Assembly (NCBI GenBank): GCA_038925245.1
Contig: JBCKTZ010000002.1
Coordinates: 11,568-75,567 of the forward strand
Direction of reading: 5' to 3'
Source: Gallionellaceae bacterium
GTDB taxonomy: Bacteria; Pseudomonadota; Gammaproteobacteria; Burkholderiales; Gallionellaceae
DNA: 64,000 bases
Below the pieces are notes generated by a model, which searched no databases, had not been told where the DNA came from, and saw nothing but the letters and a program-made list of their open reading frames with translations. Each line of letters starts with the position of its first letter. Within the stretch, counting starts at the first letter, position 1. The translations under genes were made by a program, and so were the position numbers. Below are positions 5,168-18,519 of the stretch, in pieces.

Positions 5168-5189
5168 TGGTGCGGGAGGGGGAATCGAA
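5168..5189. repeat. distal att direct repeat (displaced 3' fragment of tRNA-Leu)
   Basis: TGGTGC-GGGAGGGGGAATCGAA matches 18433-18455 (TGGTGCCGGGAGGGGGAATCGAA) apart from a 1-nt deletion. Confidence 0.75.
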
Positions 5190-5355
5190 AAACAAGCTGT
5201 ACGCCTTATATATACTAGGTTTGCAGATTGTCATTTCTAATGTTACTGTAAAAGTTACTGCATTCCCGTCCCGCTACTACTTCAGTTTTAATCGTGATGA
5301 TGAAGTTTAACAGGTAAGCATGGCGGAAGTGCATTTTATGTTTTGTCTGCACTCA

Positions 5356-5432
5356 GGGTGGTGTATGGAAATAAAAAAATCCAGTGCAGGGGTTTTTGTC
5401 CTGTACGAATTTTTTATTTCCATACACCACCC
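5356..5432. repeat. perfect 23-bp inverted repeat (large hairpin) near the island end
   Basis: GGGTGGTGTATGGAAATAAAAAA (5356-5378) is the exact reverse complement of 5410-5432. The loop is 31 nt. Confidence 0.8.
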
Positions 5433-6278
5433 GCAAACGATAACGGTGGCGTGATGGTGTGGGCGCTTTTGTTTCATGCCTGCACCATGACGTTGCCTCG
5501 ATAAACAACATACACTCCCGCTATGAATAATGCGCGCAGCGACTACACCTCTCCTTATAAAACCAACCCGGCGAAGCCGCCATATTAAGCATTGCCTCGC
5601 CTTGCCCGCCCCTGCTCTTTCCAGCGAGCGATGCAGGACACAGTACTGTGAACTGTTTGCGTGGATGCGGGTTTACCAAGGGCAAGGGGTGGCAGTGCGG
5701 ACGGGTGCGGTCATGCCTTTGTTTCATTTGACCGCTAGGGGGCTGGGGGGCGTTAGAGGGAAAGCGCCCCCGAACAAACCGCGAAGCGACAACACCGCAG
5801 AACAAACACCGCGCAGCGACAAGAGGAAGAGAAGATATAGGTCGGCACGACCATGCAGCAAAAAGCGAAGGGGCGATGATTTACCAGCCCTGTTTTGCTG
5901 CCCTTCACTATGGTGATAGACGTTGACCTGGTGGCGGTATTTACCCGAAGGGCGCAAGACATAACGGTCTCTTGTACGAACCTAGAGGGCGGGCGGCTTT
6001 ATGCCCGGCGCTTGCGCTTTGTACAAGACGCCGTTATGTTAAAACACCGCCACACTAACAACCGGCGCAGCCGACCACACATTACCTCGAACCGTTGCAG
6101 GGGCGCTGAACTGTCAGGCTACCAGTGCACGAGCCGCCTACGAACCGCAAGCACCTGGCGAGGCTTTTTTCGCGAGGTGCGCAGTGGTGAAGCGGCGGCG
6201 GGAACGGAGCAACACACTGTCCACGGAGTAGAAGCCAGGGGCGGTAAGCGTGGCGGATAATCAAAAAATGCGATGGGG

Positions 6279-6533
6279 TTATTTGCGCTTTTTGAGGTCG
6301 CTTAATTGCTTGCCGATTTGCTTATTCACTGCGGATGCCTCTTTAATATTGTCGCGATCCTCTTCGCTGAGCGGTTCATGCAAACCATGCTTGGCCATTT
6401 TGAGTTGCAGGAGACAAGTCTTCAGCATAGTGACAAGAATTTTTCTTCGCGCAGTCCAGCTCACACTTCGAGGCCGTTCGACCAACTCACTTTGCATCTG
6501 AATCAAATTGGCTAGTAAAAATTTTGTACTCAT
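6279..6533 (-). CDS. hypothetical small helical protein (84 aa) with a basic C-terminus
   Basis: This is the only plausible ORF in the interval and I recognise no motif. The coding call is uncertain. Confidence 0.4.
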   Translation of the reverse strand: MSTKFLLANLIQMQSELVERPRSVSWTARRKILVTMLKTCLLQLKMAKHGLHEPLSEEDRDNIKEASAVNKQIGKQLSDLKKRK

Positions 6534-6776
6534 ACAACCCCCTTAATTATTGATGCGTGGGAAAACTCACCTATCCAATATCTTTATTTCATTACCAAGC
6601 CAGTCTATAGGAATAGAACATGCAATGCATCCATCGTGGTCGATCATCGGCTGCAAGTCTGCATACCCCCCCCCCCACAGGCGGACAGCGTATAGAGGGC
6701 CCGGCCTTCATTTATCTTAGCCCCGCATTCCTCAGGCAGTTTTTAAGTGCTGTAAACCCTTATATACCCCACCCTG

Positions 6777-7037
6777 TTACAGCCTTGCCTCAGCCATCAA
6801 GTCCATCAGGCTTACATCAAGGGCTTTCGCAATTTTCAGCAATGTGAGCACGGCCACGTTGTTATCACCACGTTCCACACGTCCTATGTAGCTGCGGTCA
6901 ATCTCTGCCATCAGCGCAAGTTTTTCTTGTGATATGCCTTTCTGTTTACGAATGCAGCGGATCGCTTCGCCCAAGGCGATGAGCGCGGGATGTTGACGAT
7001 GTTGGGAGAGGTTAGGCATCATTCCGTTATACTGCAT
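6777..7037 (-). CDS. XRE-family helix-turn-helix transcriptional regulator
   Basis: Classic HTH_3 core: LGEAIRCIRKQKGISQEKLALMAEIDRSYIGRVERG. Confidence 0.85.
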   Translation of the reverse strand: MQYNGMMPNLSQHRQHPALIALGEAIRCIRKQKGISQEKLALMAEIDRSYIGRVERGDNNVAVLTLLKIAKALDVSLMDLMAEARL

Positions 7038-7045
7038 AAGAATCC

Positions 7046-7061
7046 AAGGTACATGTACCTT
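7046..7061. promoter_or_regulatory. perfect 16-bp palindrome AAGGTACATGTACCTT, candidate operator in the XRE/nuclease divergent promoter
   Basis: Seen directly. It lies 9 nt upstream of the XRE start codon, between the divergent genes. Confidence 0.55.
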
Positions 7062-7122
7062 TTTTAATTGTTACTTGCTCGACCCTGAGTATTGACTGAG
7101 GCGGCTCTGATTTGAATGAACA

Positions 7123-7551
7123 ATGATTACCGCCCTGATGTGCCTAGTTATCGCTATAGCAGACGGTGACACTCTCACAGTACTATGCAATGACAATCAG
7201 CAAATAAAAATCCGACTGGCTGAAATTGACGCACCAGAAAAAACCCAGCCATTCGGCAATCGCTCCAAACAATCCCTTGCGGATTTGTGCTATCAAAAGC
7301 AGGCGGAAATTAAAGTTCAAACAAAAGACCGATACGGGCGAACTGTTGCGCGAGTAATATGTGACGGCACTGATGCTAATGTGGAACAGGTTAAGCGTGG
7401 CATGGCGTGGGTGTACGAAAAGTATGCGAAGGATAGAAGCCTGTATGCCTTACAGGATGAAGCGAGAGCATTAAGGGTGGGGTTATGGGCTGATAGTGAT
7501 CCTATTCAGCCTTGGGAGTATCGTAAGAGCAAGAGGGTGAATTCAGGATGA
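7123..7551 (+). CDS. thermonuclease-family (SNase / micrococcal nuclease-like) protein
   Basis: DGDTL...IRLAEIDAPE...GRTVA... motifs of the staphylococcal nuclease fold. An in-frame stop sits 6 nt upstream, so the N-terminus is short. Confidence 0.85.
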   Translation: MITALMCLVIAIADGDTLTVLCNDNQQIKIRLAEIDAPEKTQPFGNRSKQSLADLCYQKQAEIKVQTKDRYGRTVARVICDGTDANVEQVKRGMAWVYEKYAKDRSLYALQDEARALRVGLWADSDPIQPWEYRKSKRVNSG

Positions 7552-7751
7552 TTCGGACTGGATGGCACATAGGTAAATGGTAGCGCCCCCTTTATTCTGC
7601 CCTACCATGTTGCATTGACATGCGCTACGTTCAAGGCGAGTCTGCGGACAGACAGCAAGACAAACGAAAAAAATAGTGTATCCGGGGTTCTCTGTTGAAA
7701 ATACACCGCCCAACACATCTTAATACCACTCACCCTAGGGAGAATTCATTC

Positions 7752-10082
7752 ATGAAAAGTTTGATCTGTTCTTTGTTGCTGTCGCTGGCACTCACCGTCG
7801 GTGCGTCGGTGCAAGCGCAGACGTTTGAGCAGTCGGTGGCGGCCAATGATCGCAAGGATTTCCGCACGGCGTTTGCAGGGTTTAAAAAGCTGGCCGAGAA
7901 GGGGAGTGCCGGGGCGCAGAGGAGCCTAGGTGAGATGTATCACTACGGCGAAGGCGTTCCCAAGGACTACCAGCAGGCCTTGGCGTGGTACCGCAAGGCC
8001 GCCGACCAGGGGGATGCCATGGCGTGGTTCCGCCTGGGTGAGATGTATAACAACGGCCAAGGCGTGCCCAAGGACGATCAGCAAGCCGTGGTGTGGTTCC
8101 GCAAAGCAGCCAAGCAGGGGAATGCTCGTGCGCAGATCAGCCTGGGTGAGATGTATCGCTACGGCCAAGGCGTGCCCAAGGACGATCAGCAAGCTGCAGC
8201 GTGGTACAGGAAAGCCGCCGAGCAGGGGGATGAGGGCGCACAGTACAACCTTGGCAATATGTATGCCGACGGTCGAGGAGTGCCCAAGGACGAGCAGCAA
8301 GCAGTGGCGTGGTACCGCAAAGCCGCCGAGCAAGGGGATGGCATGGCGCAGGACAAACTGGGCAATATGTATGCCGACGGTCGAGGAGTGCCCAAGGACG
8401 AGCAGCAAGCAGTGGCGTGGTACCGCAAAGCCGCTGAAAATGAGAGCCACTTTATGTGGCAGTTTCGCTTTCGTCGAGGAGAACCCAAGAACGAGCAGCA
8501 GAAGATGGCGTGGTATCGCATAGACGCCGAGCAGGGAAATGCCAGTGCGCAGGCCATGCTGGGCATGATGTATGATCACGGACGAGGCGTGCCACAGGAC
8601 TACCAGCAGGCGGAGGTGTGGTACCGCAAAGCAGCCGAGCAAGGGAATGCCGTGGCGCAGTTCGGCCTAGGAAAGATGTATGAACACGGCCTAGGCGTAC
8701 CCAAGGACGAGCAGCAAGCCATGGTGTGGTACAGGAAAGCCGCAGAGCAGGGCTATGTCGTGGCACAGTACAACCTAGGCCAGATGTATTTCATGGTCAA
8801 AGGCGAGGCGCGCGATCTCAAGCAAGCCGCAGCGTGGTACCGCAAGGCCGCCGAGCAGGAGCTTGCTAACGCGCAGAGCATGCTAGGCTATATGTATGAA
8901 CACGGCCTAGGCGTACCCAAGGACGAGCAGCAAGCTGTGGTGTGGTATAGGAAAGCCGCCGAGCAGGGGTTTGCCAGTGCGCAGCGCAAGCTCGGCCTGA
9001 TGTATCGCATAGGCCAAGGCGTGACACTCGACCCCAGGCAAGCCTTTTACTGGTGGACCAAAGCTGCCGATCAGGGCTATGCCGATGCTCAGTTCGACCT
9101 GGGCTATATGTATGAATTCGGCCAAGGCGTGCCAAAGGACGTACAGCAGGCGGTGGCGTGGTACCGCAAAGCCGCCGAGCAGGGGCATGCCATGGCGCAG
9201 ACAACCATGGGCGTGATGTATCGCAAGGGCCAAGGCGTACCCAAGGATGAACAATCGGCTTATTTATGGTGGCTGCTGGCCAGTGCACAGGGGAATCAAC
9301 ATGCAGCAAATTTCCGTGATTCGGTGGAGTCCATCTTGTCTCCCGAGCAACGCGCCGCCGCGCAAGCCGCCGCGCGCAACTGGCAGCCCAAAACCGCCGC
9401 GCAATCCAGCAATGACCCCGGTGGAAGTTCCGCTGACTCCGGTGGCTCGAACTCCGCCCCTAGCCACGCGAAAGCCCAAGCCGACAGTACCGGCAGTGGC
9501 TTTCGCGTGGCGCGCGACGCCATCGTCACCAACCATCATGTGATTGACGGCTGCAGCCGCTTGCACGTCAACGGCACCGCCGCCCAGGTGCGCGGCAGCG
9601 ATGCGCGTAGTGACCTAGCCTTACTGGGTGTTAATCTGCCAGGCCCCAGCGTCAGCTTGCGGGCGCAGCGCGCGGCGGTGGGCGAACCGGTGGCAGTAGC
9701 GGGGTACCCGCTGCGTGGCCTACTCTCGGGTTTCAACATGACCACCGGCAACCTCAGTAGCCTGTCTGGCCTGGGGGGCGACACACGCTATCTACAGATC
9801 ACCGCGCCGGTGCAGCCCGGCAACAGCGGCGGCCCCATGCTGGACTCGGCGGGCAACCTGATGGGTGTGGTGGTGTCCAAGCTGGACGCGATCAAGCTGG
9901 CCAAGATCACCGGCGACATTCCGCAAAACGTCAACTTCGCGATTAACGCCAATGTGCTGCGCTCGTTCCTAGATGCCAACAGCGTGGACTACAACAGCGC
10001 CAGCTCCGACAAGCCACTACCGCCCACGGCGATTGCAGAAAAGGCCAAGGGCTTTACTGTGTTGGTGGAGTGCTGGAAGTGA
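7752..10082 (+). CDS. exported Sel1-repeat (SLR) protein fused to a C-terminal trypsin-like (S1C-type) serine protease domain
   Basis: Sec signal peptide (...ASVQA/QT). I count 13 units of 36 aa with a GxMYxxGxGVxxD...AxxWYRKAAEQG core. The C-terminal domain has TNHHV (His), SDLALL (Asp) and GNSGGP (Ser). The start is set at ATG 7752. Confidence 0.85.
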   Translation: MKSLICSLLLSLALTVGASVQAQTFEQSVAANDRKDFRTAFAGFKKLAEKGSAGAQRSLGEMYHYGEGVPKDYQQALAWYRKAADQGDAMAWFRLGEMYNNGQGVPKDDQQAVVWFRKAAKQGNARAQISLGEMYRYGQGVPKDDQQAAAWYRKAAEQGDEGAQYNLGNMYADGRGVPKDEQQAVAWYRKAAEQGDGMAQDKLGNMYADGRGVPKDEQQAVAWYRKAAENESHFMWQFRFRRGEPKNEQQKMAWYRIDAEQGNASAQAMLGMMYDHGRGVPQDYQQAEVWYRKAAEQGNAVAQFGLGKMYEHGLGVPKDEQQAMVWYRKAAEQGYVVAQYNLGQMYFMVKGEARDLKQAAAWYRKAAEQELANAQSMLGYMYEHGLGVPKDEQQAVVWYRKAAEQGFASAQRKLGLMYRIGQGVTLDPRQAFYWWTKAADQGYADAQFDLGYMYEFGQGVPKDVQQAVAWYRKAAEQGHAMAQTTMGVMYRKGQGVPKDEQSAYLWWLLASAQGNQHAANFRDSVESILSPEQRAAAQAAARNWQPKTAAQSSNDPGGSSADSGGSNSAPSHAKAQADSTGSGFRVARDAIVTNHHVIDGCSRLHVNGTAAQVRGSDARSDLALLGVNLPGPSVSLRAQRAAVGEPVAVAGYPLRGLLSGFNMTTGNLSSLSGLGGDTRYLQITAPVQPGNSGGPMLDSAGNLMGVVVSKLDAIKLAKITGDIPQNVNFAINANVLRSFLDANSVDYNSASSDKPLPPTAIAEKAKGFTVLVECWK

Positions 10083-10202
10083 GCTTGCCGACGCGACCAT
10101 ACACGTGATGGTGTCAAATGTTGAAGATAATGGAATCGTCCCCTTTGTCGCGAACTTACTAGCCAATCTGAAGCAGAACTAAGCACCCCGAAAGAGAAAA
10201 CT

Positions 10203-12248
10203 ATGACACGATCAATTCAAATCTTTTTGGCTGCCTTTGCCATATTGTTGGTGGGTTGCGATAACAGCACATCGACCACGAGCGCCGAAAAATCCCAAGC
10301 CACCAATGCAGCTAACACGAGCAACAAGATCGATCCCAAGAACTACGACGGGCCACTTTTCCCGGCCATAAAGGATGGAAAATATGGCTTTATTGATACC
10401 AAGGGAAACTTTTTAATTCCTCCAACCTTCACGTCAGCCGAAAACTTTAGCGAGGGAATGGCTGCGGTATATGTGGGAGGACGATCATTTATTTACGGAG
10501 AATCAGGTCAACACATAAGCCTAGAAGGCGGGAAATGGGGTTACATTGACCGTACTGGAGAAATTAAAATCCCCCCACAGTTTGGAGAGGCCGCACAATT
10601 CAATGAAGGCCTTGCGTTCGTAGCGGGCGACATAGGCCATAAAGAGGCTTGGGGGTTTATTGACGCACAGGGTTTGTACAAAATCAATCCGAAATATGGG
10701 CCTGAGCAATCTTCCTTTAAAAACGGAATCGCCTTTGTTAGGTTGGCTGATAGTGATAAAGTAACCCTTGAAAATGGTCACTGGTTTGACGTATCAGGTA
10801 AGGAAATTAGTATTGCTGAAGCAGCAGAAAAAATGGCCAAGCACTCAGCGCTTAACAAAAAGCACTGGATTGACGCTTCAGGCAAAGTAATTGACGGCAT
10901 CAAGGCGTTAAGCATAATCAAATTGAATCGCATAGCTTTTGAACAAAAAAATACTCTCGAGATAGATGGGGGAGCTTATTACAACGTTGGTCAAGAGGGC
11001 TTGAAAGACAGCAAGGGGCGCGTTGTTGTCAAAGCAAAGTTTTATTCTATTGGAGATTTTTATAACAAATTCGAAGGGAAGGTATATGAATTCACAGATG
11101 CTTGCATAGTATCTACTTGGATAACATACCCGAGGCGCAATTATGCGATGATGAAAACAGTAAAATGTGGATTAATCGACATGAATGGGGATTTTGTTCT
11201 TGCTCCCGATTTTGATCGAGTAAGACTAATATCTGAAGATTTAGCCGTGTTCACCATAGGGTGTGATCGCCAGTGGGAGTGTGATGCCGCGAAAGAAGGC
11301 ATTTTCAGTATCAAAGAACAAAAAATTATTGTAAATCCGCAATTTAAGTGGATTGGAAAATTACGTGATGGGCTGATTGCAGTTGATCTCGACGGCAAGT
11401 TGGGGTTCATCGATGTCAGCGGTAAGTATGTCATTCAACCTCAATTTACTTCTGCATTACTCTTTAAAGATGGATTGGCTCGAGTTGGCTTAGCTGACTA
11501 TATCAACAAGACCGGCGAGTATGTGTACAAGGGTTCAATAGGCAATCTGCAACCAAAGCCCAAGGAAACCACTGCTTCACCTGGCGCTGGCAACCCTGTA
11601 TCGGCGAGTGGATCACTGGCTAAAAAAGGTACCGGAACGGTTTTTATTATCAGCAAGGAAGGCCACGCGATAACCAACCACCACGTTGTCGGTGGCTGTA
11701 GCGAACTTCGTGTCGAAGGCCGTGAAGGGGTGGCTAAACTCGTTACCGCTGACGAGGTCAATGATCTGGCGCTGATTAAGGTTCCTGGAAATATATCAGC
11801 CACGGCAACCATCGCCGCTGATCCGGTAAAGCTGCGGCAGGGCGATGACATCATCGTATTCGGCTTTCCGCTCAACGCTGTGCTGTCGTCGGGTGGGAAC
11901 CTGACGCCAGGCGTGGTCAGCGCGCTCACCGGCCTCGGCAACAACACCAACCAGATTCAGATTACCGCGCCGATCCAGCCCGGTTCCAGCGGCAGCCCGG
12001 TGCTGAACAAGAAGGGTGAAGTCGTCGGCGTGGTGTCGATGAAACTCGATGATATAAAGATGGCGAAGGCGACAGGGCAGTTCGGTCAGAACGTCAACTT
12101 CGCCGTGAGCGGCCAGACCCTGAAATCCTTCGTCGATACGCACAAGGTCAGGTATCGCAGCGGCGGGATGCTGTCGTTCGAGAAGAGCACCGCCGACCTC
12201 GCAGACGAGGCGCGGAAATGGACTCTGGTGGTGGAGTGCTGGAAGTAA
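10203..12248 (+). CDS. lipoprotein with WG-containing beta-repeats fused to a C-terminal trypsin-like serine protease domain
   Basis: Lipobox LLVGC. GKYGFID / GKWGYID / EAWGFID / KLGFID repeats recur (WG/KWG repeat type). The C-terminal domain has TNHHV, NDLALI and GSSGSP, and the C-terminal tail matches the 7752-10082 protein. Confidence 0.8.
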   Translation: MTRSIQIFLAAFAILLVGCDNSTSTTSAEKSQATNAANTSNKIDPKNYDGPLFPAIKDGKYGFIDTKGNFLIPPTFTSAENFSEGMAAVYVGGRSFIYGESGQHISLEGGKWGYIDRTGEIKIPPQFGEAAQFNEGLAFVAGDIGHKEAWGFIDAQGLYKINPKYGPEQSSFKNGIAFVRLADSDKVTLENGHWFDVSGKEISIAEAAEKMAKHSALNKKHWIDASGKVIDGIKALSIIKLNRIAFEQKNTLEIDGGAYYNVGQEGLKDSKGRVVVKAKFYSIGDFYNKFEGKVYEFTDACIVSTWITYPRRNYAMMKTVKCGLIDMNGDFVLAPDFDRVRLISEDLAVFTIGCDRQWECDAAKEGIFSIKEQKIIVNPQFKWIGKLRDGLIAVDLDGKLGFIDVSGKYVIQPQFTSALLFKDGLARVGLADYINKTGEYVYKGSIGNLQPKPKETTASPGAGNPVSASGSLAKKGTGTVFIISKEGHAITNHHVVGGCSELRVEGREGVAKLVTADEVNDLALIKVPGNISATATIAADPVKLRQGDDIIVFGFPLNAVLSSGGNLTPGVVSALTGLGNNTNQIQITAPIQPGSSGSPVLNKKGEVVGVVSMKLDDIKMAKATGQFGQNVNFAVSGQTLKSFVDTHKVRYRSGGMLSFEKSTADLADEARKWTLVVECWK

Positions 12249-12264
12249 GGGCGAGTGAACAACT

Positions 12265-12576
12265 TCACTTCGGGGCATGCCAGGTCGCTTTAAAGCCCCC
12301 GTCCCGCCATCCCCTTAATCGGGTGTATCCCAGCTTGCGCAAAATATCTCCAAGCTCTCCTGCTTGAGCTTGGCGGCCTTGTCGACCTTTCAGTGACACA
12401 CGGAAGAACTCCAACGACTGGGGCTGAGTGCGCTGTTCGGGGGGCAGTCCCGCGATAAATTTCTGTAACCGCTGGATCAAGGGGGCGAGGGGCCTTTCAG
12501 TTTCGGGCGCAGGGGTGGGTTTGATATGGCTGGCAGCCTTTATTTTTTCCATCCACGTTATGATATGGGCATCCAC
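12265..12576 (-). CDS. hypothetical protein (103 aa)
   Basis: ORF only. It is convergent with the protease gene and I recognise no motif. Confidence 0.45.
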   Translation of the reverse strand: MDAHIITWMEKIKAASHIKPTPAPETERPLAPLIQRLQKFIAGLPPEQRTQPQSLEFFRVSLKGRQGRQAQAGELGDILRKLGYTRLRGWRDGGFKATWHAPK

Positions 12577-12796
12577 AAATAAAATCCTTTTTTGGTGGTG
12601 GTTGTGATTTGCTATGTCTGCATTAAGTGTTGCAGAGCAAGCATTAAAGTAATATTATTGTTATAAATCAATAAGTTGCATGTTATTGGTTAAGCCGAAT
12701 TCTATCGTTTATATTCAACGAGACGCAAGAACTGCAACAGCTAATTTAGACATAGCCTTGTGATTCGCCTCAGATTCTCACTTGGCGGCCATGAAT

Positions 12797-12900
12797 TGCG
12801 TGATATGCGTGATATACCCCCCCTAAAACATAAACTTTTCTATAACTCTCTCGCATGGAAAAGTTTTGAGAAATAGGTCAATAATCACGCATATCACGCA
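12797..12900. promoter_or_regulatory. inverted pair of double GCGTGATA boxes next to an AT-rich tract; candidate island replication origin
   Basis: TGCGTGATATGCGTGAT (from 12797) is the perfect reverse complement of ATCACGCATATCACGCA (12884-12900). The site is immediately downstream of the primase gene and next to very AT-rich DNA (12600-12780). Confidence 0.45.
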
Positions 12901-12907
12901 CCCCTCG

Positions 12908-15271
12908 CTAGGCCGCTGCCATACCGTGCATGTTCAAGGCAAGCCCGCCAATATTCCGCTTGTCAGGCAGTATGGGGTAGCCGCGTTCCCCAAGTCGCCT
13001 GGTCAATCTCCTTTGCGCCAAAGGGTGATGCCCGTTATCCAGCGCCCATTTACGGTATGCCCGGTAGAGTAGGTCTTTGCGGGCTTTTTTATCCTGCCCT
13101 CTATCGCAGTGCTCAGCTAACCATTCGCCGATAGTGTCTTGCTCATCACGGTAAGCCGCCGTTGCGGCTTCAATCTTTTTGGGTACGGATAGGCCACCTT
13201 GCTGCCACTTCCGCAGTCCAGCCAGCGACCAATTAAGAATACCAGCCCCTTCATTTTTCAGTTTTTCCAGCAGTTTCGGATCACGCATTTTTTCCTCGAT
13301 AGTCACGTCAAATTGAACCAAACAAACACGCCGCCACATGCCATGGCTGCTGTCTCCAATTTCAGGCTTGTGGTTGCCTACGATTGCAAGCTTGTGTGTT
13401 GGTTGAAATGTGATGTCGGCCTTGCCGTATGGCACCCGGCCAGCCAGTGTGTCGCCGCCGGTCATTTCCTTGACCTTGGCCTCGGCCAGCTTCCGGCCTT
13501 CTTCTGTTTCGTTAGCATAGACAAAGCGCCTGCCTTTAAGGGAAACAATGTCAGGGCTTGCAGCTTGCGGACTCCGCTGGTGTTGCATCAACATTTCCGT
13601 GGCGATTTTTTTGGCGTAGTCACCAAGTAGCCATGCGAGTAATTCAACGAACACGCTTTTACCGTTCGCGCCGCTACCGTGCAGGAATACAAATCTCTGT
13701 TCTTGCACGCTACCCGTTAAGCAATACCCCACCCATCGCTGGAGAAATTTCTGCATTTCAGGATCGGGTTGAACATCGGCGAGGAACTGTTCCCATTGCG
13801 GACAGGTTGCCCCTTGGTCATAAATAACATTGCAACGTTTGGTCACTAGCAGGCTGGGCGACACGGGCAATAGCTTCCCGCCACGAAGATCAAGAACCCC
13901 ATTTGCCACCCCAAGCTGCATGGAGTCAGCGTCAAAGTCATTCAGGCTTCTAGTCATTCCACTTTCTGATGCGGCCATGCTGATCATCGCATTAATTTTT
14001 GGCTCTGTGCTGGACTGATCCACGTGCTTCATAAAACGCTTAACTTTTTGATCATCAGGATTCAGCTTCCACTGTTCCGCAGCGTTGGCGCGCATTGCCG
14101 CCACAACTTCCTTGCCCGCACGATCAGCCTCTCCCGGTTGTGCATGTACCCATCCGGCTGCATCGCTGAATTGCAGCACGTCGCCCGTTTCGTGCACGAA
14201 CAGCAGCTTGTCCCGGAACATGTCCGCAAAGGCTTTTCCGTTCATAATATCTCCGGCAGTGTCACCGTGCGAGGCTTCAATCGAGACTGTATTTCCTGTA
14301 TCTACCCAGCCTGCCTCTTTCGCGTGGTGAACCAGCGTGCCGAAGCCGATTCCGCCATCTGGATTAAATGAGTTCCAGTCCTTAGTAAAGGCAACTGCGT
14401 CATATTTGTCCGGCGCGGTTGCTGACCACTCAAGGGCCAGTACCTGAGCACACCGCCAACCTGTACTCGCTATCGCCCATATTATATTGAGCCAGCGCGT
14501 CCGATCACAGTCAGCAGGAATAGTTGCCAACATTGATTTCACACGCTCGATTTCTTCCGGCGTTTCCGGTGGGGGCGGTGATTTCAAATCGGCGGTAAGG
14601 GCATGGTTTAGAGCTAGGCTGTCAGTAGAGTACTCTGCCTTTTGCACCTGATCGAGAAGCAAACCACTAGACATCTCATCCGGGGTATACACTATCGCAT
14701 TCTGATTTGCCAAAACGATGCGCACTAGAAACGCCCCGCACTCATTAACGTAGATACCCCCCTTTTTCTTCTGGTGATAGAACCCTGGCAGTCGTAGCAC
14801 GCGGGGGAGATCAATTACATTCTTATCGGTAGCAAATTTCTTGGCAAGCGCAACTTGAACCTGTCTGAATTCGTTTAAGTTACAGACTGCCTCCCAATAA
14901 ACATGGTAATTGCCTGGGCTGGATTCAATCAGCATTAGCGGAAGAACAGACCCGTCGCGAGCCGCCATAATTATTGGCTTGAGTGGGGCGCCGTCCGTGT
15001 CAGCAAAGTAACAGCGTACCTTGATAATGTTAGCCGCTTTGCGCCCATGTAAATCGGTCTGATTGATCGTTACGAATATTCCCGCGCCTTGCGCATTCAG
15101 GCCGGATAGCGCTTGACTGTGCTGCACCAGCGTGCCGTGAAAAATCCGCACTAACTGCGGGCGACCTTCATCGCTGTCGTCGAAGGTTTGAAAAGTGAAC
15201 TGATCGGTCTGTGGGTCGAGAAGATGCAGGAAACGCGCAGCCTCCGTGAGGTCGATTTGATTGGCTATCAT
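12908..15271 (-). CDS. P4-family primase/helicase (N-terminal primase-polymerase region plus C-terminal SF3 NTPase)
   Basis: Walker A FLHGSGANGKS. The C-terminal half resembles the phage/plasmid primase P4-family domain (VGYCLTG..., D5-type NTPase). Confidence 0.88.
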   Translation of the reverse strand: MIANQIDLTEAARFLHLLDPQTDQFTFQTFDDSDEGRPQLVRIFHGTLVQHSQALSGLNAQGAGIFVTINQTDLHGRKAANIIKVRCYFADTDGAPLKPIIMAARDGSVLPLMLIESSPGNYHVYWEAVCNLNEFRQVQVALAKKFATDKNVIDLPRVLRLPGFYHQKKKGGIYVNECGAFLVRIVLANQNAIVYTPDEMSSGLLLDQVQKAEYSTDSLALNHALTADLKSPPPPETPEEIERVKSMLATIPADCDRTRWLNIIWAIASTGWRCAQVLALEWSATAPDKYDAVAFTKDWNSFNPDGGIGFGTLVHHAKEAGWVDTGNTVSIEASHGDTAGDIMNGKAFADMFRDKLLFVHETGDVLQFSDAAGWVHAQPGEADRAGKEVVAAMRANAAEQWKLNPDDQKVKRFMKHVDQSSTEPKINAMISMAASESGMTRSLNDFDADSMQLGVANGVLDLRGGKLLPVSPSLLVTKRCNVIYDQGATCPQWEQFLADVQPDPEMQKFLQRWVGYCLTGSVQEQRFVFLHGSGANGKSVFVELLAWLLGDYAKKIATEMLMQHQRSPQAASPDIVSLKGRRFVYANETEEGRKLAEAKVKEMTGGDTLAGRVPYGKADITFQPTHKLAIVGNHKPEIGDSSHGMWRRVCLVQFDVTIEEKMRDPKLLEKLKNEGAGILNWSLAGLRKWQQGGLSVPKKIEAATAAYRDEQDTIGEWLAEHCDRGQDKKARKDLLYRAYRKWALDNGHHPLAQRRLTRRLGERGYPILPDKRNIGGLALNMHGMAAA

Positions 15272-15612
15272 GGCTTACCCCCTGCGCGTGCCAATCCATA
15301 GTTGTAAAACCCTGCGTGGCCTTTCGGGACAATTGTTTGTGGAAGAGCACCGCCATTCATCATGGCAACACTGCGTGCATAGGCTTCGAGAACATCCACC
15401 GGAAGGGCGGACATAAGCGAGACAAATAAAATGGATTCAGCCAAAACATCTATCGACTCCCCCCCGGCCATAACGCGACGGATGGCGGCGGTAACGACCA
15501 TCACACTTAGCTTTCCGGATGGTGTAGCCAGATAGTCCATGTAGGGAGCCATTTCAGGGCAGCTTTTTGGCATATCCCGGTGGTATGAAAAACAGCGTGT
15601 GTATTTTTTCAT
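15268..15612 (-). CDS. hypothetical protein (114 aa)
   Basis: The ORF overlaps the primase start by 4 nt, an operon-style junction. Confidence 0.5.
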   Translation of the reverse strand: MKKYTRCFSYHRDMPKSCPEMAPYMDYLATPSGKLSVMVVTAAIRRVMAGGESIDVLAESILFVSLMSALPVDVLEAYARSVAMMNGGALPQTIVPKGHAGFYNYGLARAGGKP

Positions 15613-15890
15613 TGCTGCCCCCGATCTATATTCTGACTATGGTCGTGAGGTAACTGTGTGGGTTGAATAGCTGGCTGCGAGCTGATAACTTGTGCGCCCT
15701 GGCCATTTCGATTTTTTTCCCAGGCCAAGATTTCATCTTGGGAAAATAAGCCATTTACTTGCAATGGAAAAATTGGATCATATTTCTTTGCGTCTTTAGC
15801 AAGAAGTTGGTTCATCTCGCTAAAGTTTATGCCAAGAGCGACAGCGACTTCGATGTGTTTGAGGTGACGTGTATTAGGGGCTGCGCTCAT
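15609..15890 (-). CDS. hypothetical protein (93 aa)
   Basis: 4-nt overlap with the downstream ORF. I recognise no motif. Confidence 0.5.
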   Translation of the reverse strand: MSAAPNTRHLKHIEVAVALGINFSEMNQLLAKDAKKYDPIFPLQVNGLFSQDEILAWEKNRNGQGAQVISSQPAIQPTQLPHDHSQNIDRGQQ

Positions 15891-15892
15891 AA

Positions 15893-16117
15893 TTATTTTC
15901 CCCCTTCATCATTAGCAACACGCTCAATTAGTGCACGTATATCATCCACTTTCCAAGCAGTTGTTCGATTTGATAAGTGCACGCTGGCTGGGTATTTACC
16001 CGATGCCACCCCTGCCCACCACGATGATCGACCAACTGGGAAGACTGCTAATATTTGAGGTAGTCGAACGAAGCCTGTTGCTGGTAAAGAATTTGATAGC
16101 ATATTGACGGTCTCCAT
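15893..16117 (-). CDS. AlpA-family (phage_AlpA / excisionase-like) DNA-binding protein
   Basis: FVRLPQILAVFPVGRSSWWAGVASGKYP...W...DI pattern typical of AlpA/Xis-type winged HTH proteins on P4-integrase islands. Confidence 0.8.
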   Translation of the reverse strand: METVNMLSNSLPATGFVRLPQILAVFPVGRSSWWAGVASGKYPASVHLSNRTTAWKVDDIRALIERVANDEGGK

Positions 16118-16300
16118 AATAGCTATTAAGACTTGATTGCCTTAATGCTGCGGAGGTTACACGCCGGATATTTTTTACGACTGGCATTGCTTGCCGCATA
16201 CGGCAAGCCTTCTAGCGCTTACACAGGGGGGAGGGGTGACTACAGAACTTTGACTTTAAAAATATACGGCAAGGTGATACGGCAAGCGCAGGGCTACGTA

Positions 16301-16972
16301 TTATTTACCCTCTAAATTATCGGCAGTAGTTTGGCATACGTCACAATCGTGGTATTTCTTCCGCAGGATGTTTGCGGCCTGCTTTTCGTTAATAAATTTC
16401 TTATCCAATAAGTACATTGCTATTTGGTCAGGATACCATCTAGATTCTTTCTTTCCTCGCCCTACTGATGCGCGACAATCGAGCAACCCTGGATAACGTT
16501 TAGCTTCTCTAAAGCGCTTCTTAAAAGAATCTTCGTCGAGTTTATTTTGCAGCATAAAATCAGAAATTATTTTTGTTGATGATACTGCCTCAGATTTTCT
16601 AACCGGTGTGCTCGGCTTGTTCAATTTACACAATTCAGCAAGTGCAATCCGAGGAATATATAACTTATCACAACCAATTTCTTTTATGTGCTTTAGCGCG
16701 TCAGTACCTTGGAATAGCATCGTAGCGTCAGCCCCACCATGAGTGTCAATTGTACATAAAGGCAACGTACCATCAGCACACCACGCCAATAACAGCAATA
16801 CAGAGTTTTCCTTTGTAGCAACATAAGGAAAGTATCTGCGAATATCTTCAACTGTTAGGTTCGCAGCTGCCAATACACCATCAAAAACTTCTGCACCCCA
16901 AGTGTGAGCGCCCTGATTTAGATATAAATAAGTTTCAGCTTCGTCGATTGACAACAGTGTAGACGTGCCCAT
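16301..16972 (-). CDS. hypothetical protein (223 aa), AT-rich, translationally coupled to the integrase
   Basis: Its ATG (16972-16970) overlaps the integrase TGA in an ATGA junction. I recognise no motif. Confidence 0.55.
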   Translation of the reverse strand: MGTSTLLSIDEAETYLYLNQGAHTWGAEVFDGVLAAANLTVEDIRRYFPYVATKENSVLLLLAWCADGTLPLCTIDTHGGADATMLFQGTDALKHIKEIGCDKLYIPRIALAELCKLNKPSTPVRKSEAVSSTKIISDFMLQNKLDEDSFKKRFREAKRYPGLLDCRASVGRGKKESRWYPDQIAMYLLDKKFINEKQAANILRKKYHDCDVCQTTADNLEGK

Positions 16973-18240
16973 CACGCAACTTTTCCAAGCAGCGGTATCA
17001 CGTCCGCCCCAGCCTTGAGCTTGTCCAGATAATCCGCCCATTGCTGCATCATCTTGCGACGTTCAACAAGGTGAGCAGTGCGATTGTATGCGCGCCCGTT
17101 GGGGTCTTTAACCGCGTGTGCTAGTTGGTGTTCGATAAAGTCAGTACGCACACCCAGCTCTTCATCCAGAATCGTGCGAGCCATTGCCCGGAAGCCGTGG
17201 CCGCTCATTTCATCTTTTGCAAAACCCATGCGCCGCAGTGCAGCCAGAATGGCGTTATCGCTCATCGGCCTGCCATTGGTGCGCGCCCCTGGAAACACAT
17301 AGCGCCCGTCGCCAGTGAGTGCGTGAAGTTCGCGCAGAATTTCCACCGCTTGCGAGGATAGAGGGACAAGGTGCGGTTCGCGCATTTTCATGCGTTCGGC
17401 GGGTATATTCCATTCAGCTTTATCGAGGTCTATTTCCGCCCATTCCGCCTTGCGTAGCTCACCAGGACGCACGAATACCATAGGGGCGATGCGCAGGGCG
17501 CACTTGGTCACGAACTGGCCTTGATAGCCGTCTATGGCGCGCAGGAGTGAGCCAACGGCCTTGGATTCGATAATGGCGGCATGGTGTTTCACTTTTTTGC
17601 TTGGCATGTATTCGCATAAACGCGCGGTAGGATCGCCTTGCGAATAACCCTTCTTGGCGGCGTATCCGAATATCCGGCCACAGTTCCACAGGACGCGCCG
17701 TGCAATATCTAATGCGCCCCTGTCCACAATGCGCTGGACGGTTGCGTCAATTTCTGGCGTGGTGATTTTATTTATAGGGTGTCTGCCCAGCCAAGGAAAA
17801 ACATCCTTTTCCATCCAGCCGATGATTTTTCCCGTTTGCTTTTCGGATCGCCTGTCCGTTGGGACAGTCGCCCATTCACGCGCGACATCTTCAAAAGAAC
17901 CGGCAGCAGGCAACCCTTCATCTGTTCGCCGCTCTGCTTCCAGCGCCTCAGCTTGTTGCGCCTTGCTTGCCTTGCGTACATCGCTAGGATCAGTGCCCGC
18001 TGCCACCAACTCCCGCGCTGTATCCGCCTTGTTGCGCGCCGCCTTTAGTCCGGTGTCTGGATATACGCCAATGGAAAGAGTTTTGCGCTTACCACCAGTG
18101 CTGTAATCCAAGCGCCACCAGCGCGCGCCGTTCGGCTTGACCAGCAGATAAAGCCCGTCCCCGTCATTCAGGCGTTGTGTCGCGTCCGTGGGCTTGGTGT
18201 TGCGGATAGTCACATCCGTCTTGATTAGGTGTCGCACCAT
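16972..18240 (-). CDS. int: tyrosine recombinase, P4-type integrase
   Basis: N-terminal DUF4102-like arm-binding region (LNDGDGLYLLVKPNGARWWRLDY). The C-terminal catalytic region has ...HGFRAMARTIL... and ...HLVERRKMMQQWADYLD. It is adjacent to the tRNA 3' end. Confidence 0.92.
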   Translation of the reverse strand: MVRHLIKTDVTIRNTKPTDATQRLNDGDGLYLLVKPNGARWWRLDYSTGGKRKTLSIGVYPDTGLKAARNKADTARELVAAGTDPSDVRKASKAQQAEALEAERRTDEGLPAAGSFEDVAREWATVPTDRRSEKQTGKIIGWMEKDVFPWLGRHPINKITTPEIDATVQRIVDRGALDIARRVLWNCGRIFGYAAKKGYSQGDPTARLCEYMPSKKVKHHAAIIESKAVGSLLRAIDGYQGQFVTKCALRIAPMVFVRPGELRKAEWAEIDLDKAEWNIPAERMKMREPHLVPLSSQAVEILRELHALTGDGRYVFPGARTNGRPMSDNAILAALRRMGFAKDEMSGHGFRAMARTILDEELGVRTDFIEHQLAHAVKDPNGRAYNRTAHLVERRKMMQQWADYLDKLKAGADVIPLLGKVA

Positions 18241-18351
18241 TGCAGTAACTCCAGTAGAAAATGCAGTAACTTTTCAGAGAAAAACAGTAACAGGGGGTGT
18301 TACTGCATAAGTTACTGCAAATTTAGCCGGATTGCAATAGATGTTACTGCA
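18241..18351. promoter_or_regulatory. cluster of six GTTACTGCA / TGCAGTAAC boxes; candidate integrase/Xis arm-type binding sites
   Basis: Boxes at 18241, 18262 and 18284 in one orientation, and at 18299, 18311 and 18343 in the other. Two more lie at the far end of the island (5242-5262). Confidence 0.55.
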
Positions 18352-18432
18352 TTTCGCTGGACAAGAAAAAACCCGCAATGCTATAAGACATGCGGGTTTA
18401 AGGACTTCTTTGGACTTCTTCAAACTATAAAA

Positions 18433-18519
18433 TGGTGCCGGGAGGGGGAATCGAACCCCCACATCCTTGCGAATACTGGATTTTGAGTCCAGCGCGTCTA
18501 CCAATTCCGCCATCCCGGC
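18433..18519 (-). tRNA. tRNA-Leu (anticodon CAA), type II with a long variable arm
   Basis: The reverse complement folds as a cloverleaf: acceptor GCCGGGA/TCCCGGC, anticodon loop CTCAAAA, T-arm GGGGGTTCGATTCCCCC, encoded CCA. Confidence 0.9.

Follow-up and report, generated by a model that had tools for sequence, protein, structure and literature searches.

HtrA-like proteases with repeat scaffolds and a cysteine-bearing tail in the mosaic cargo of a tRNA-Leu island from a Gallionellaceae bacterium

The window analysed here (64,000 nucleotides (nt) of contig JBCKTZ010000002.1 of a Gallionellaceae bacterium, to which all positions refer unless a locus is named) contains a 13.3-kb integrase-AlpA-primase island at a tRNA-Leu, and the region 6777-12248 is the mosaic cargo end of this island. 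The cargo consists of genes for an XRE regulator, a thermonuclease-family protein (SNase) and two large exported proteases. In the explanation that we favour, with moderate confidence in it taken as one reading, both large genes belong to one very large clade of exported HtrA-like (S1C) proteases without PDZ domains, and the four genes are an accretion of independently acquired mobile genes rather than one machine or a new multi-gene system. What the region holds is a variation on a known theme: an HtrA-like protease of the envelope that lacks PDZ domains and has a repeat scaffold and a tail with a Cys, found beside an ordinary mobile-element nuclease and regulator. The four-gene arrangement itself does not appear to be a new system. 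The features of the region are as follows (aa, amino acids; HTH, helix-turn-helix).

6777-7037, minus strand: XRE/C-protein-like HTH regulator, 86 aa (HTH_3, E 2e-15)
7046-7061: 16-bp perfect palindrome AAGGTACATGTACCTT between the XRE and SNase genes, candidate operator
7123-7551, plus strand: SNase (thermonuclease family) gene, 142 aa (SNase, E 6e-26)
7752-10082, plus strand (reading frame open from 7695): Sel1-type exported protease, 776 aa (Pfam, 108-nt repeats, AlphaFold), with signal peptide 7752-7817, solenoid ~7864-9336, disordered linker ~9396-9473, protease cassette and tail 9486-10079
10203-12248, plus strand: WG-type lipoprotein protease, 681 aa (Pfam, AlphaFold, Foldseek), with lipobox Cys 10257-10259, WG-repeat domain ~10260-11620, protease cassette and tail 11625-12245

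The four open reading frames (ORFs), with these strands and coordinates, had been described in an earlier note made from the sequence alone, and its description of the single genes held. Pfam confirmed the XRE, SNase, Sel1-plus-protease and WG-plus-protease domains, a Sec signal peptide and a lipobox are present on sequence inspection, and the His, Asp and Ser motifs are present, aligned and conserved in both cassettes. Both proteins end in the identical VECWK-stop. The Sel1 protein has Cys only at 6 (in the signal peptide), 601 (His+5) and 774, i.e. two in the mature protein as noted, and the cassette Cys residues of the WG protein (499 and 679) occupy the same two positions. The count of 13 Sel1 repeats is fair, with 12 intact units and one degenerate unit (108-nt DNA period and motif count; units of ~36 aa, PF08238).

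The protease family and its domains

The likely start of the Sel1-type gene is the ATG at 7752, preceded by a GGGAGA Shine-Dalgarno sequence. It gives the leader MKSLICSLLLSLALTVGASVQA followed by QTF, which was judged by eye to be a Sec-type signal peptide ending VQA/Q. Pfam matched 12 Sel1 stretches (E 1e-140) and Trypsin_2 (E 7e-21) in this protein, and the codons of the catalytic triad are at 9537-9539 (His), 9612-9614 (Asp) and 9825-9827 (Ser). The seventh Sel1 unit (8389-8496) is degenerate and shortened (spacing of 201 nt vs 216) and reads ENESHFMWQFRFRRGEPKNEQQKMAWYRIDAEQG in the protein, as if a deletion or recombination in the repeat array had left a scar. An AlphaFold model of residues 500-776 had a predicted local distance difference test score (pLDDT) of 90.4, with values below 55 in the linker (~25 low-confidence residues preceding the cassette).

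The leader of the WG protein, MTRSIQIFLAAFAILLVGC followed by D, was likewise judged by eye to be a lipobox (LLVGC/D). Pfam found WG_beta_rep (E 4e-48; PF14903 with 161.7 bits in 4 stretches, cut-off 25.6) and Trypsin_2 (E 7e-25), the triad codons are at 11682-11684 (His), 11763-11765 (Asp) and 11988-11990 (Ser), and the cassette (208 aa) was modelled with a pLDDT of 90.6. The residue after the lipobox Cys is Asp (VGC/D, 10257-10262); homologues have GCD, GCG or no Cys at this place. In E. coli, Asp after the lipobox Cys keeps a lipoprotein in the inner membrane.

Both cassettes belong to a family of considerable size. A profile search of 1.84 billion cluster representatives returned 6,474 clusters (50% identity) at E<=1e-30, a threshold that was taken as conservative for the clade because classical HtrA proteins reach no better than ~1e-14 when one sequence serves as the query. 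The two cassettes had 270 and 2,263 database matches, at least 534 places were found in a scan of one genome per species, and the window cassettes reach 90-92% identity with family members. The common architecture comprises an N-terminal repeat scaffold, a disordered linker, the protease cassette and a C-terminal helix-strand tail. The scaffold is Sel1 in 71 of 80 full-length representatives, WG in four and RDD in four (a few carry TPR or peptidoglycan-binding domains), and most representatives start with a lipoprotein or Sec-like leader. The His/Asp/Ser triad is intact in 303 of 346 aligned domains, the remainder being mostly fragments. About 20 full-length homologues share the WG-type architecture, and all of the 20 WG-type proteins compared (20/20) keep both Cys residues, the triad and the Glu.

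The relation to HtrA proteins is seen in fold and sequence alike. The best Foldseek matches of the cassette model were HtrA, DegP, DegQ and DegS (probability 1.0, template modelling score ~0.65), and the best sequence matches were the same proteins at E ~1e-14. Trypsin_2 scored 76 and 89 bits in the two window proteins (cut-off 27.6), and TIGR02037 (Do family) 67 and 84 bits vs a cut-off of 416. Pfam found no PDZ domain in either protein; instead of it, ~35 residues follow the cassette, modelled as a helix and a strand. The cassette was not found in IMG/VR viral contigs, and a profile of the full-length WG-type proteins retrieved from these contigs only generic WG-repeat proteins without the protease. 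A domain survey from 2008 lists the trypsin plus Sel1 architecture and gives no function for it (PMC2605481).

Sel1-type relatives are found among housekeeping genes (pntB, comEC, dnaJK, the fixNOQP cluster, secDF). Family members are not tied to any one genomic position, and identity is high across phyla (e.g. 75% to a Verrucomicrobia metagenome-assembled genome (MAG) and 69-72% to Nitrospira), which argues for horizontal spread. In some loci (L087-L090, e.g. L087 9348-10576, and L081 1968-3470) gene callers split the Sel1 ORF from the protease ORF; the split ORFs overlap by 37 nt in L087-L090, and the 191-aa product has 21 member sequences. The split could be the mark of a pseudogene with a frameshift, arise as an artefact of sequencing or be due to a programmed shift.

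The C-terminal tail and the cysteine pair

The family cassette has the signature H-x4-C (Cys at His+5) followed at the protein end by E-C-W-[K/R]-stop. The tail is present in most of 120 database homologues and forms the exact protein end in 260 of 346 aligned domains, and both Cys residues are found in 292 of these 346 (exceptions are mostly truncated fragments). As the tail recurs across the family, the shared VECWK end of the two window proteins is not a matter of chance but a family signature. The last 49 nt of the two genes (10035-10083 and 12201-12249) are 73% identical, due to the strong conservation of the tail, with the cassettes 44% identical at the protein level.

In the AlphaFold models of both proteins the two-barrel protease is followed by a helix (190-200) and a strand (201-207) that contains E-C-W-K, with pLDDT >90 (tail and coupling positions are numbered on the WG cassette, position n being protein residue n+473). 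Coevolution was analysed by mean-field direct coupling analysis of 389 family sequences (effective number 265), which recovered the hairpins expected for the fold. The best ladder for the tail strand ran antiparallel to residues 27-33 with a score of 0.48 (known hairpins, 0.41-0.57). The tail couplings V204-I52 (2.06), K208-V22 (1.39), W207-E28 (1.22) and E205-R30 (1.14) lie above the 99.5th percentile (1.04). Furthermore, W200 couples with S125, two residues past the catalytic Ser. The C26-C206 coupling (0.62) is uninformative, because both columns are near-invariant. Models and coevolution thus place the tail strand next to the segment right after Cys26, i.e. the strand following the catalytic His.

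The earlier note had proposed a disulfide tethering the tail to the active-site loop. The near-invariant Cys pair and the tail running antiparallel to the post-His strand make a Cys26-Cys206 bond (His+5 Cys to tail Cys) sterically plausible, provided that the Gly-Gly-Cys turn can bend over the C-terminal end. The probable strand register, which would put Cys206 opposite residue 29, fits such a bond less well.

Such a bond could also be read as a control device. The tail would then be an autoinhibitory or redox-sensitive latch, held by the disulfide beside the catalytic His, released by reduction, cleavage or substrate, and replacing PDZ control. The regulatory PDZ domain is indeed absent, the Glu-Cys-aromatic-basic C-terminus is near-invariant, and the terminal residue couples with V22 beside the catalytic His, as does W200 with S125 near the catalytic Ser. 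However, the modelled tail is a regular helix plus edge strand with pLDDT >90 in both proteins, and the best-scoring ladder in the coevolution analysis pairs it with strand 27-33 in ordinary antiparallel fashion, as would fit a structural strand. A latch therefore appears unlikely to us; a strand that belongs to the fold explains the data no less well than a plug that inhibits the enzyme.

The cargo genes and the question of one system

The earlier note had regarded the four genes as a module and the two proteases as paralogues. Comparison of neighbourhoods and sequences bore out neither the module nor a recent origin of the two paralogues. In 80 species-representative loci of the protease family, tblastn found no homologues of the window XRE, integrase or primase, and a more sensitive profile search of the same loci added one XRE-like ORF (L001) and one marginal integrase-like match (L076). 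A SNase gene is adjacent in one of the 80 loci (L066), a weak SNase fragment occurs in another (L003), and a second family protease is adjacent in a single one (L044). No recurrent partner gene emerged from BLAST clustering of 349 neighbours or from a Pfam census of 150 neighbours, and most of the genes nearby have housekeeping functions. Over about 90 homologous loci, neither a nuclease nor an XRE nor a second protease recurs. Each cassette has its nearest relatives among solo genes in non-island chromosomal contexts. For the Sel1 cassette these are genes in L085-L090 (87% nucleotide identity); for the WG cassette, it is a Sel1-type gene located between pntB and comEC in L081, with 91.8% identity over bases 11650-12248 (599 nt). 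With only 44% protein identity between the cassettes and a difference in G+C content (GC) between the genes, the proteases are not recent paralogues, and a recent tandem duplication of one protease gene was rejected.

GC varies along the cargo, from 0.50 in the XRE gene and 0.47 in the nuclease gene to 0.61 in the Sel1-type gene, and the WG-type gene is itself a mosaic, in which GC rises at ~11520-11650 from ~0.42-0.44 (WG part) to 0.58 (cassette). Among WG-type proteins the WG domains are ~50% identical to one another, and their cassettes are either 74-95% or 42-45% identical to that of the window. The two cassette classes, together with the break in GC and the 92% identity at the DNA level to a gene of Sel1 type, show that the cassette recombines between N-terminal domains. 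On this sequence evidence, 11520-11650 marks a recombination junction between targeting domain and cassette.

The regulator and the nuclease are of common types. The XRE protein matched the PADLOC profile 'Control_protein' over its full length (E 7e-19); its homologues occur in varied, unrelated contexts, including mobile elements, and one stands upstream of a Qat defence operon. The palindrome AAGGTACATGTACCTT, separated by 9 nt from the XRE start codon downstream of it, is present in a single copy in the window (0.01 expected by chance); XRE probably acts there as at an operator. The nuclease (PF00565, 91.5 bits, cut-off 21) is an ordinary plasmid/phage-type thermonuclease. In an alignment with the sequence that we take to be that of Staphylococcus aureus nuclease, it keeps the equivalents of D21, R35, D40, E43 and R87, and T41 is replaced by Ala. 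Its homologues are found on >5,000 plasmids with 52-67% identity (the closest, 67%, on small MOBQ plasmids), and it is 57% identical to a gene of a Mu-like Curvibacter phage. A plasmid homologue with 65% identity has a clear signal peptide, compared with which the N-terminus of the window nuclease is much shorter, so the nuclease may not share a compartment with the proteases.

That the genes nevertheless form one module was considered, i.e. an XRE-controlled operon in which the nuclease and the two binding-repeat proteases act jointly, for example in periplasmic defence against phage or plasmid DNA and proteins. The co-directional genes with their divergent regulator and palindrome fit such an operon, as does the lack of strong terminators found between them. 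Sibling islands carry defence-type cargo in the same slot, a SNase gene stands directly upstream of a family protease in L066, and PADLOC gave domain-level matches to RT-Protease_XI, SNc+LTD and Control_protein. Yet the nuclease, the XRE and the second protease do not recur over the 80 loci and the other island-borne WG-type genes, GC differs among the genes, close relatives of either protease occur elsewhere as solo genes, the nuclease, without the clear signal peptide of its plasmid homologue, is perhaps in another compartment, and the PADLOC matches span single domains only. We hold a joint module to be very unlikely. Membership in a known defence system was also rejected: the PADLOC matches (the protease part of RT-Protease_XI, SNc, Control_protein) do not make up a full component set of any system.

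What does hold is the link to mobile elements. At least four further, unrelated mobile-element backbones carry the WG-type gene as cargo, and every longer WG-type contig examined (five in number) puts the protease gene on a mobile element.

L123: 9.2-kb tRNA-Met island with direct repeats; no further gene separates the protease gene from the distal repeat
L127: 9.8-kb tRNA-Pro island with 49-bp perfect repeats; integrase, protease, a weak small-terminase match and a different primase-polymerase
L125: Prim-Pol/PriCT_1/DUF3987 element; protease 84% identical to that of L127, the primases sharing only 24%
L129: protease gene adjoining a gene for a 2,331-aa polyvalent LPD1/ART protein
L082: protease gene adjoining VapBC-type modules

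The integrase and AlpA of L123 are 53% and 64% identical to those of the window, and in L123 and L127 the WG-type protease is the only large accessory gene. None of the five elements carries the nuclease, the XRE or a Sel1-type protease.

These elements also bear on a simpler possibility, namely that the proteases are housekeeping enzymes of envelope quality control which reached the island by chance and bring no specific benefit. The Sel1-type relatives adjoining pntB, comEC, dnaJK, the fixNOQP cluster and secDF would agree with this, as would the HtrA-like fold. The presence of the WG-type gene on at least four unrelated backbones, as sole large accessory gene in two of them, speaks against it, as do the lack of a fixed genomic position and the high cross-phylum identity. 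Such chance carriage seems quite unlikely. The earlier note had itself allowed for ordinary proteases that are linked neither to each other, nor to a nuclease, nor to mobile elements. This is what was found for the Sel1-type gene and for the link to the nuclease, but not for mobile elements, as the WG-type gene is island-borne.

Several points weigh against the favoured explanation. The export leaders of the window proteins were judged by sequence inspection, and the literature on Sel1 or WG repeats combined with a protease yielded no characterised member, so that substrates and role are inferred. The sample of five longer WG-type contigs is small, and its contigs were selected for their length. 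In the tail, the probable register (Cys206 opposite residue 29, not 26) would require the Gly-Gly-Cys turn to fold back for a disulfide, and the K208-V22 and W200-S125 couplings set the tail near catalytic residues, which makes a regulatory role possible. The window genes are co-directional behind a divergent regulator with no convincing terminator between them, and could be co-transcribed. Finally, a loose link between the genes may exist: L066 is the only repeat of the SNase-then-protease order among the 80 loci, and in L001 a divergent XRE gene adjoins a Sel1-type protease gene near alpA and a DnaB-type helicase gene.

The two loci last named have the following layout. In L066 (53-2116, Rhodospirillaceae MAG) a SNase-fold gene is directly upstream of, and co-directional with, the gene of a family lipoprotein protease, and a tRNA-Lys follows 230 nt downstream. 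L001 (4797-10627, Sulfuritalea MAG) comprises an AlpA-like gene, two ORFs, a DnaB-type helicase, a small ORF, the divergent XRE and the Sel1-type protease, whose cassette is 81% identical to the WG cassette of the window; it may be a second kind of island carrying this protease family.

If the favoured explanation holds, the proteases might work as follows. The N-terminal repeat domain, mostly a Sel1 solenoid and less often WG, would select the substrate or a location in the cell envelope, and the disordered linker joins it to the constant protease cassette. The tail strand packs, by models and coevolution, antiparallel against the strand following the catalytic-His helix, and the putative disulfide between the His+5 Cys and the tail Cys would pin it there as a staple suited to the oxidising periplasm, not as a removable plug. 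Small tRNA-integrated primase islands carry the WG-type gene repeatedly, so that it probably confers an envelope-level advantage on the element or its host. One may speculate that this advantage lies in surface remodelling or in the exclusion of incoming phages or elements.

A bolder version can be formulated, in which the WG-repeat, ECW-tailed lipoprotein protease is an accessory weapon of satellite-like islands that acts in the periplasm, cuts envelope proteins or proteins of incoming phages and plasmids, and is gated by a tail-latching disulfide made by DsbA. We see little chance of this being so; if true, it would be an envelope-located, protease-based exclusion mechanism on mobile islands with a swappable targeting domain. 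Independently of that, the envelope proteases that share the cassette form a very large group, with thousands of sequence clusters across phyla that include Proteobacteria and Nitrospira. These relatives of HtrA have, in place of PDZ control, a swappable binding-repeat domain and a conserved C-terminal tail with a Cys. Should the tail disulfide and the repeat targeting prove true, this would be a second way to build and control periplasmic HtrA-type proteases. The repeated carriage of the WG-type gene on islands suggests a selectable cell-surface function.

The island and comparison with known systems

The earlier note had placed the genes on a satellite-like island, and a bounded integrative island with integrase, AlpA, P4-family primase, a tRNA-Leu and 17-bp repeats was indeed found. 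Its features, besides the cargo, are the following (att, attachment site).

5173-18455 (approximate): island, 13.3 kb, bounded by direct repeats and integrated at tRNA-Leu(CAA)
5173-5189: distal att repeat at the left end of the island, 17 bp, a perfect direct copy of 18439-18455
5190-6278: ORF-poor stretch inside the island, adjoining the distal att repeat, ~1.1 kb with no convincing ORF
6279-6533, minus strand: small ORF, 84 aa, with no match in Pfam, NCBIfam, PADLOC or PHROGs
12265-12576, minus strand: backbone ORF downstream of the primase gene, 103 aa, of no known family
12908-15271, minus strand: P4-family primase/helicase (RepB_primase, PriCT_2, D5_N, DUF5906, Pox_D5; TIGR01613)
15893-16117, minus strand: AlpA-type excisionase/regulator (Phage_AlpA, E 2e-5; PHROG excisionase family)
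16972-18240, minus strand: tyrosine integrase of P4 type (Arm-DNA-bind_3, Phage_int_M, Phage_integrase)
18433-18519, minus strand: tRNA-Leu(CAA), integration target (ARAGORN and Rfam)
18439-18455: proximal att repeat, 17-bp direct repeat within the 3' part of the tRNA-Leu

The primase scored 283 bits against TIGR01613 (cut-off 108.7). The backbone also contains ORFs of 246, 114, 93 and 103 aa (16301-17041, 15268-15890, 12265-12576), for which Pfam, NCBIfam, PADLOC and PHROGs gave no match; a homologue of the 103-aa ORF (41% identity) occupies the same place in the sibling island L093. The ORF-poor stretch has a hairpin at 5356-5432 (80 nt, 26-nt arms that are 96% complementary, free energy -53 kcal/mol, z -7.9) and an imperfect 35-nt inverted repeat at 5959-6039. 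For 5190-6780, relaxing the Rfam threshold brought up no family, only hairpin noise below the cut-off, and BLAST against plasmids gave no match. The ORF-poor stretch could serve as an origin or as a site for packaging or recognition, or it could consist of decayed genes.

No near match to the island was found among E. coli genomes, the primase matched only two distant fragments in IMG/VR viral contigs, and exact-sequence look-ups for the WG-type protease of the window, the integrase and P0429 returned nothing. A sequence cluster containing ClpA has a member named Gallionellales and one containing the integrase a member named Nitrosospira, which points to a host of the Gallionellales/Nitrosomonadales-like betaproteobacteria. 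Sibling islands are known from metagenomes. Their primases are 54-63% identical to that of the window and the integrase-AlpA-primase-orf103 backbone is kept; the genes downstream of the primase differ, which makes this slot a variable cargo site. It holds, e.g., an Eco57I-like restriction-modification enzyme, a ResIII/endonuclease protein or a Sel1 plus DUF2628 protein. In the sibling island L094 (11826-18510, primase 63% identical) the same slot is occupied by a 682-aa Sel1 plus DUF2628 protein without a protease, together with a DUF4124 protein and an Eco57I/MmeI-like type IIG restriction-modification enzyme.

The island resembles P4-like islands and those of the phage-inducible chromosomal island (PICI) type in its tRNA integration with direct repeats, P4-type integrase, AlpA, P4-family primase and variable cargo. 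Pfam, NCBIfam and PHROGs revealed no capsid-size or capsid-redirecting, packaging or cos functions among its ORFs, small ORFs without a family remaining; "satellite" is therefore a resemblance only. The cargo differs from that of the sibling islands as well, consisting in the window of exported proteases and in the siblings of cytoplasmic defence systems.

The regulator is comparable to the controller (C) proteins of restriction-modification systems: it is a small XRE-type HTH protein with a full-length profile match, divergent from a nuclease gene and close to a palindrome. Unlike in these systems, no gene for a restriction enzyme or methyltransferase adjoins it (as judged from ORFs and Pfam), the palindrome is a lone 16-mer without a recognisable pair of C-boxes, and the homologues stand in unrelated contexts. 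With plasmid and phage thermonucleases (presumably including proteins of the RP4 ParB type) the window nuclease shares the SNase fold and the retained catalytic residues. It is, however, N-terminally truncated relative to the plasmid homologue that bears a signal peptide, and it is paired with a divergent XRE gene, a pairing that the plasmid and phage thermonucleases examined do not have.

The Sel1-type protein has the standard architecture of proteins that are named 'tetratricopeptide repeat-containing serine protease family protein' at NCBI and 'S1-C subfamily serine protease' at JGI, and its cassette is 60-92% identical to members bearing these names, which are annotation only; what sets the window copy apart from them is an unusually long solenoid of 13 repeats. 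With HtrA, DegP, DegQ and DegS (MEROPS S1C), both window proteases have in common the chymotrypsin-like fold, the His-Asp-Ser order and signals for export to the envelope. They differ from these enzymes in the absence of PDZ domains and in the possession of N-terminal Sel1 or WG scaffolds, an ECW[K/R] tail and a conserved Cys pair.

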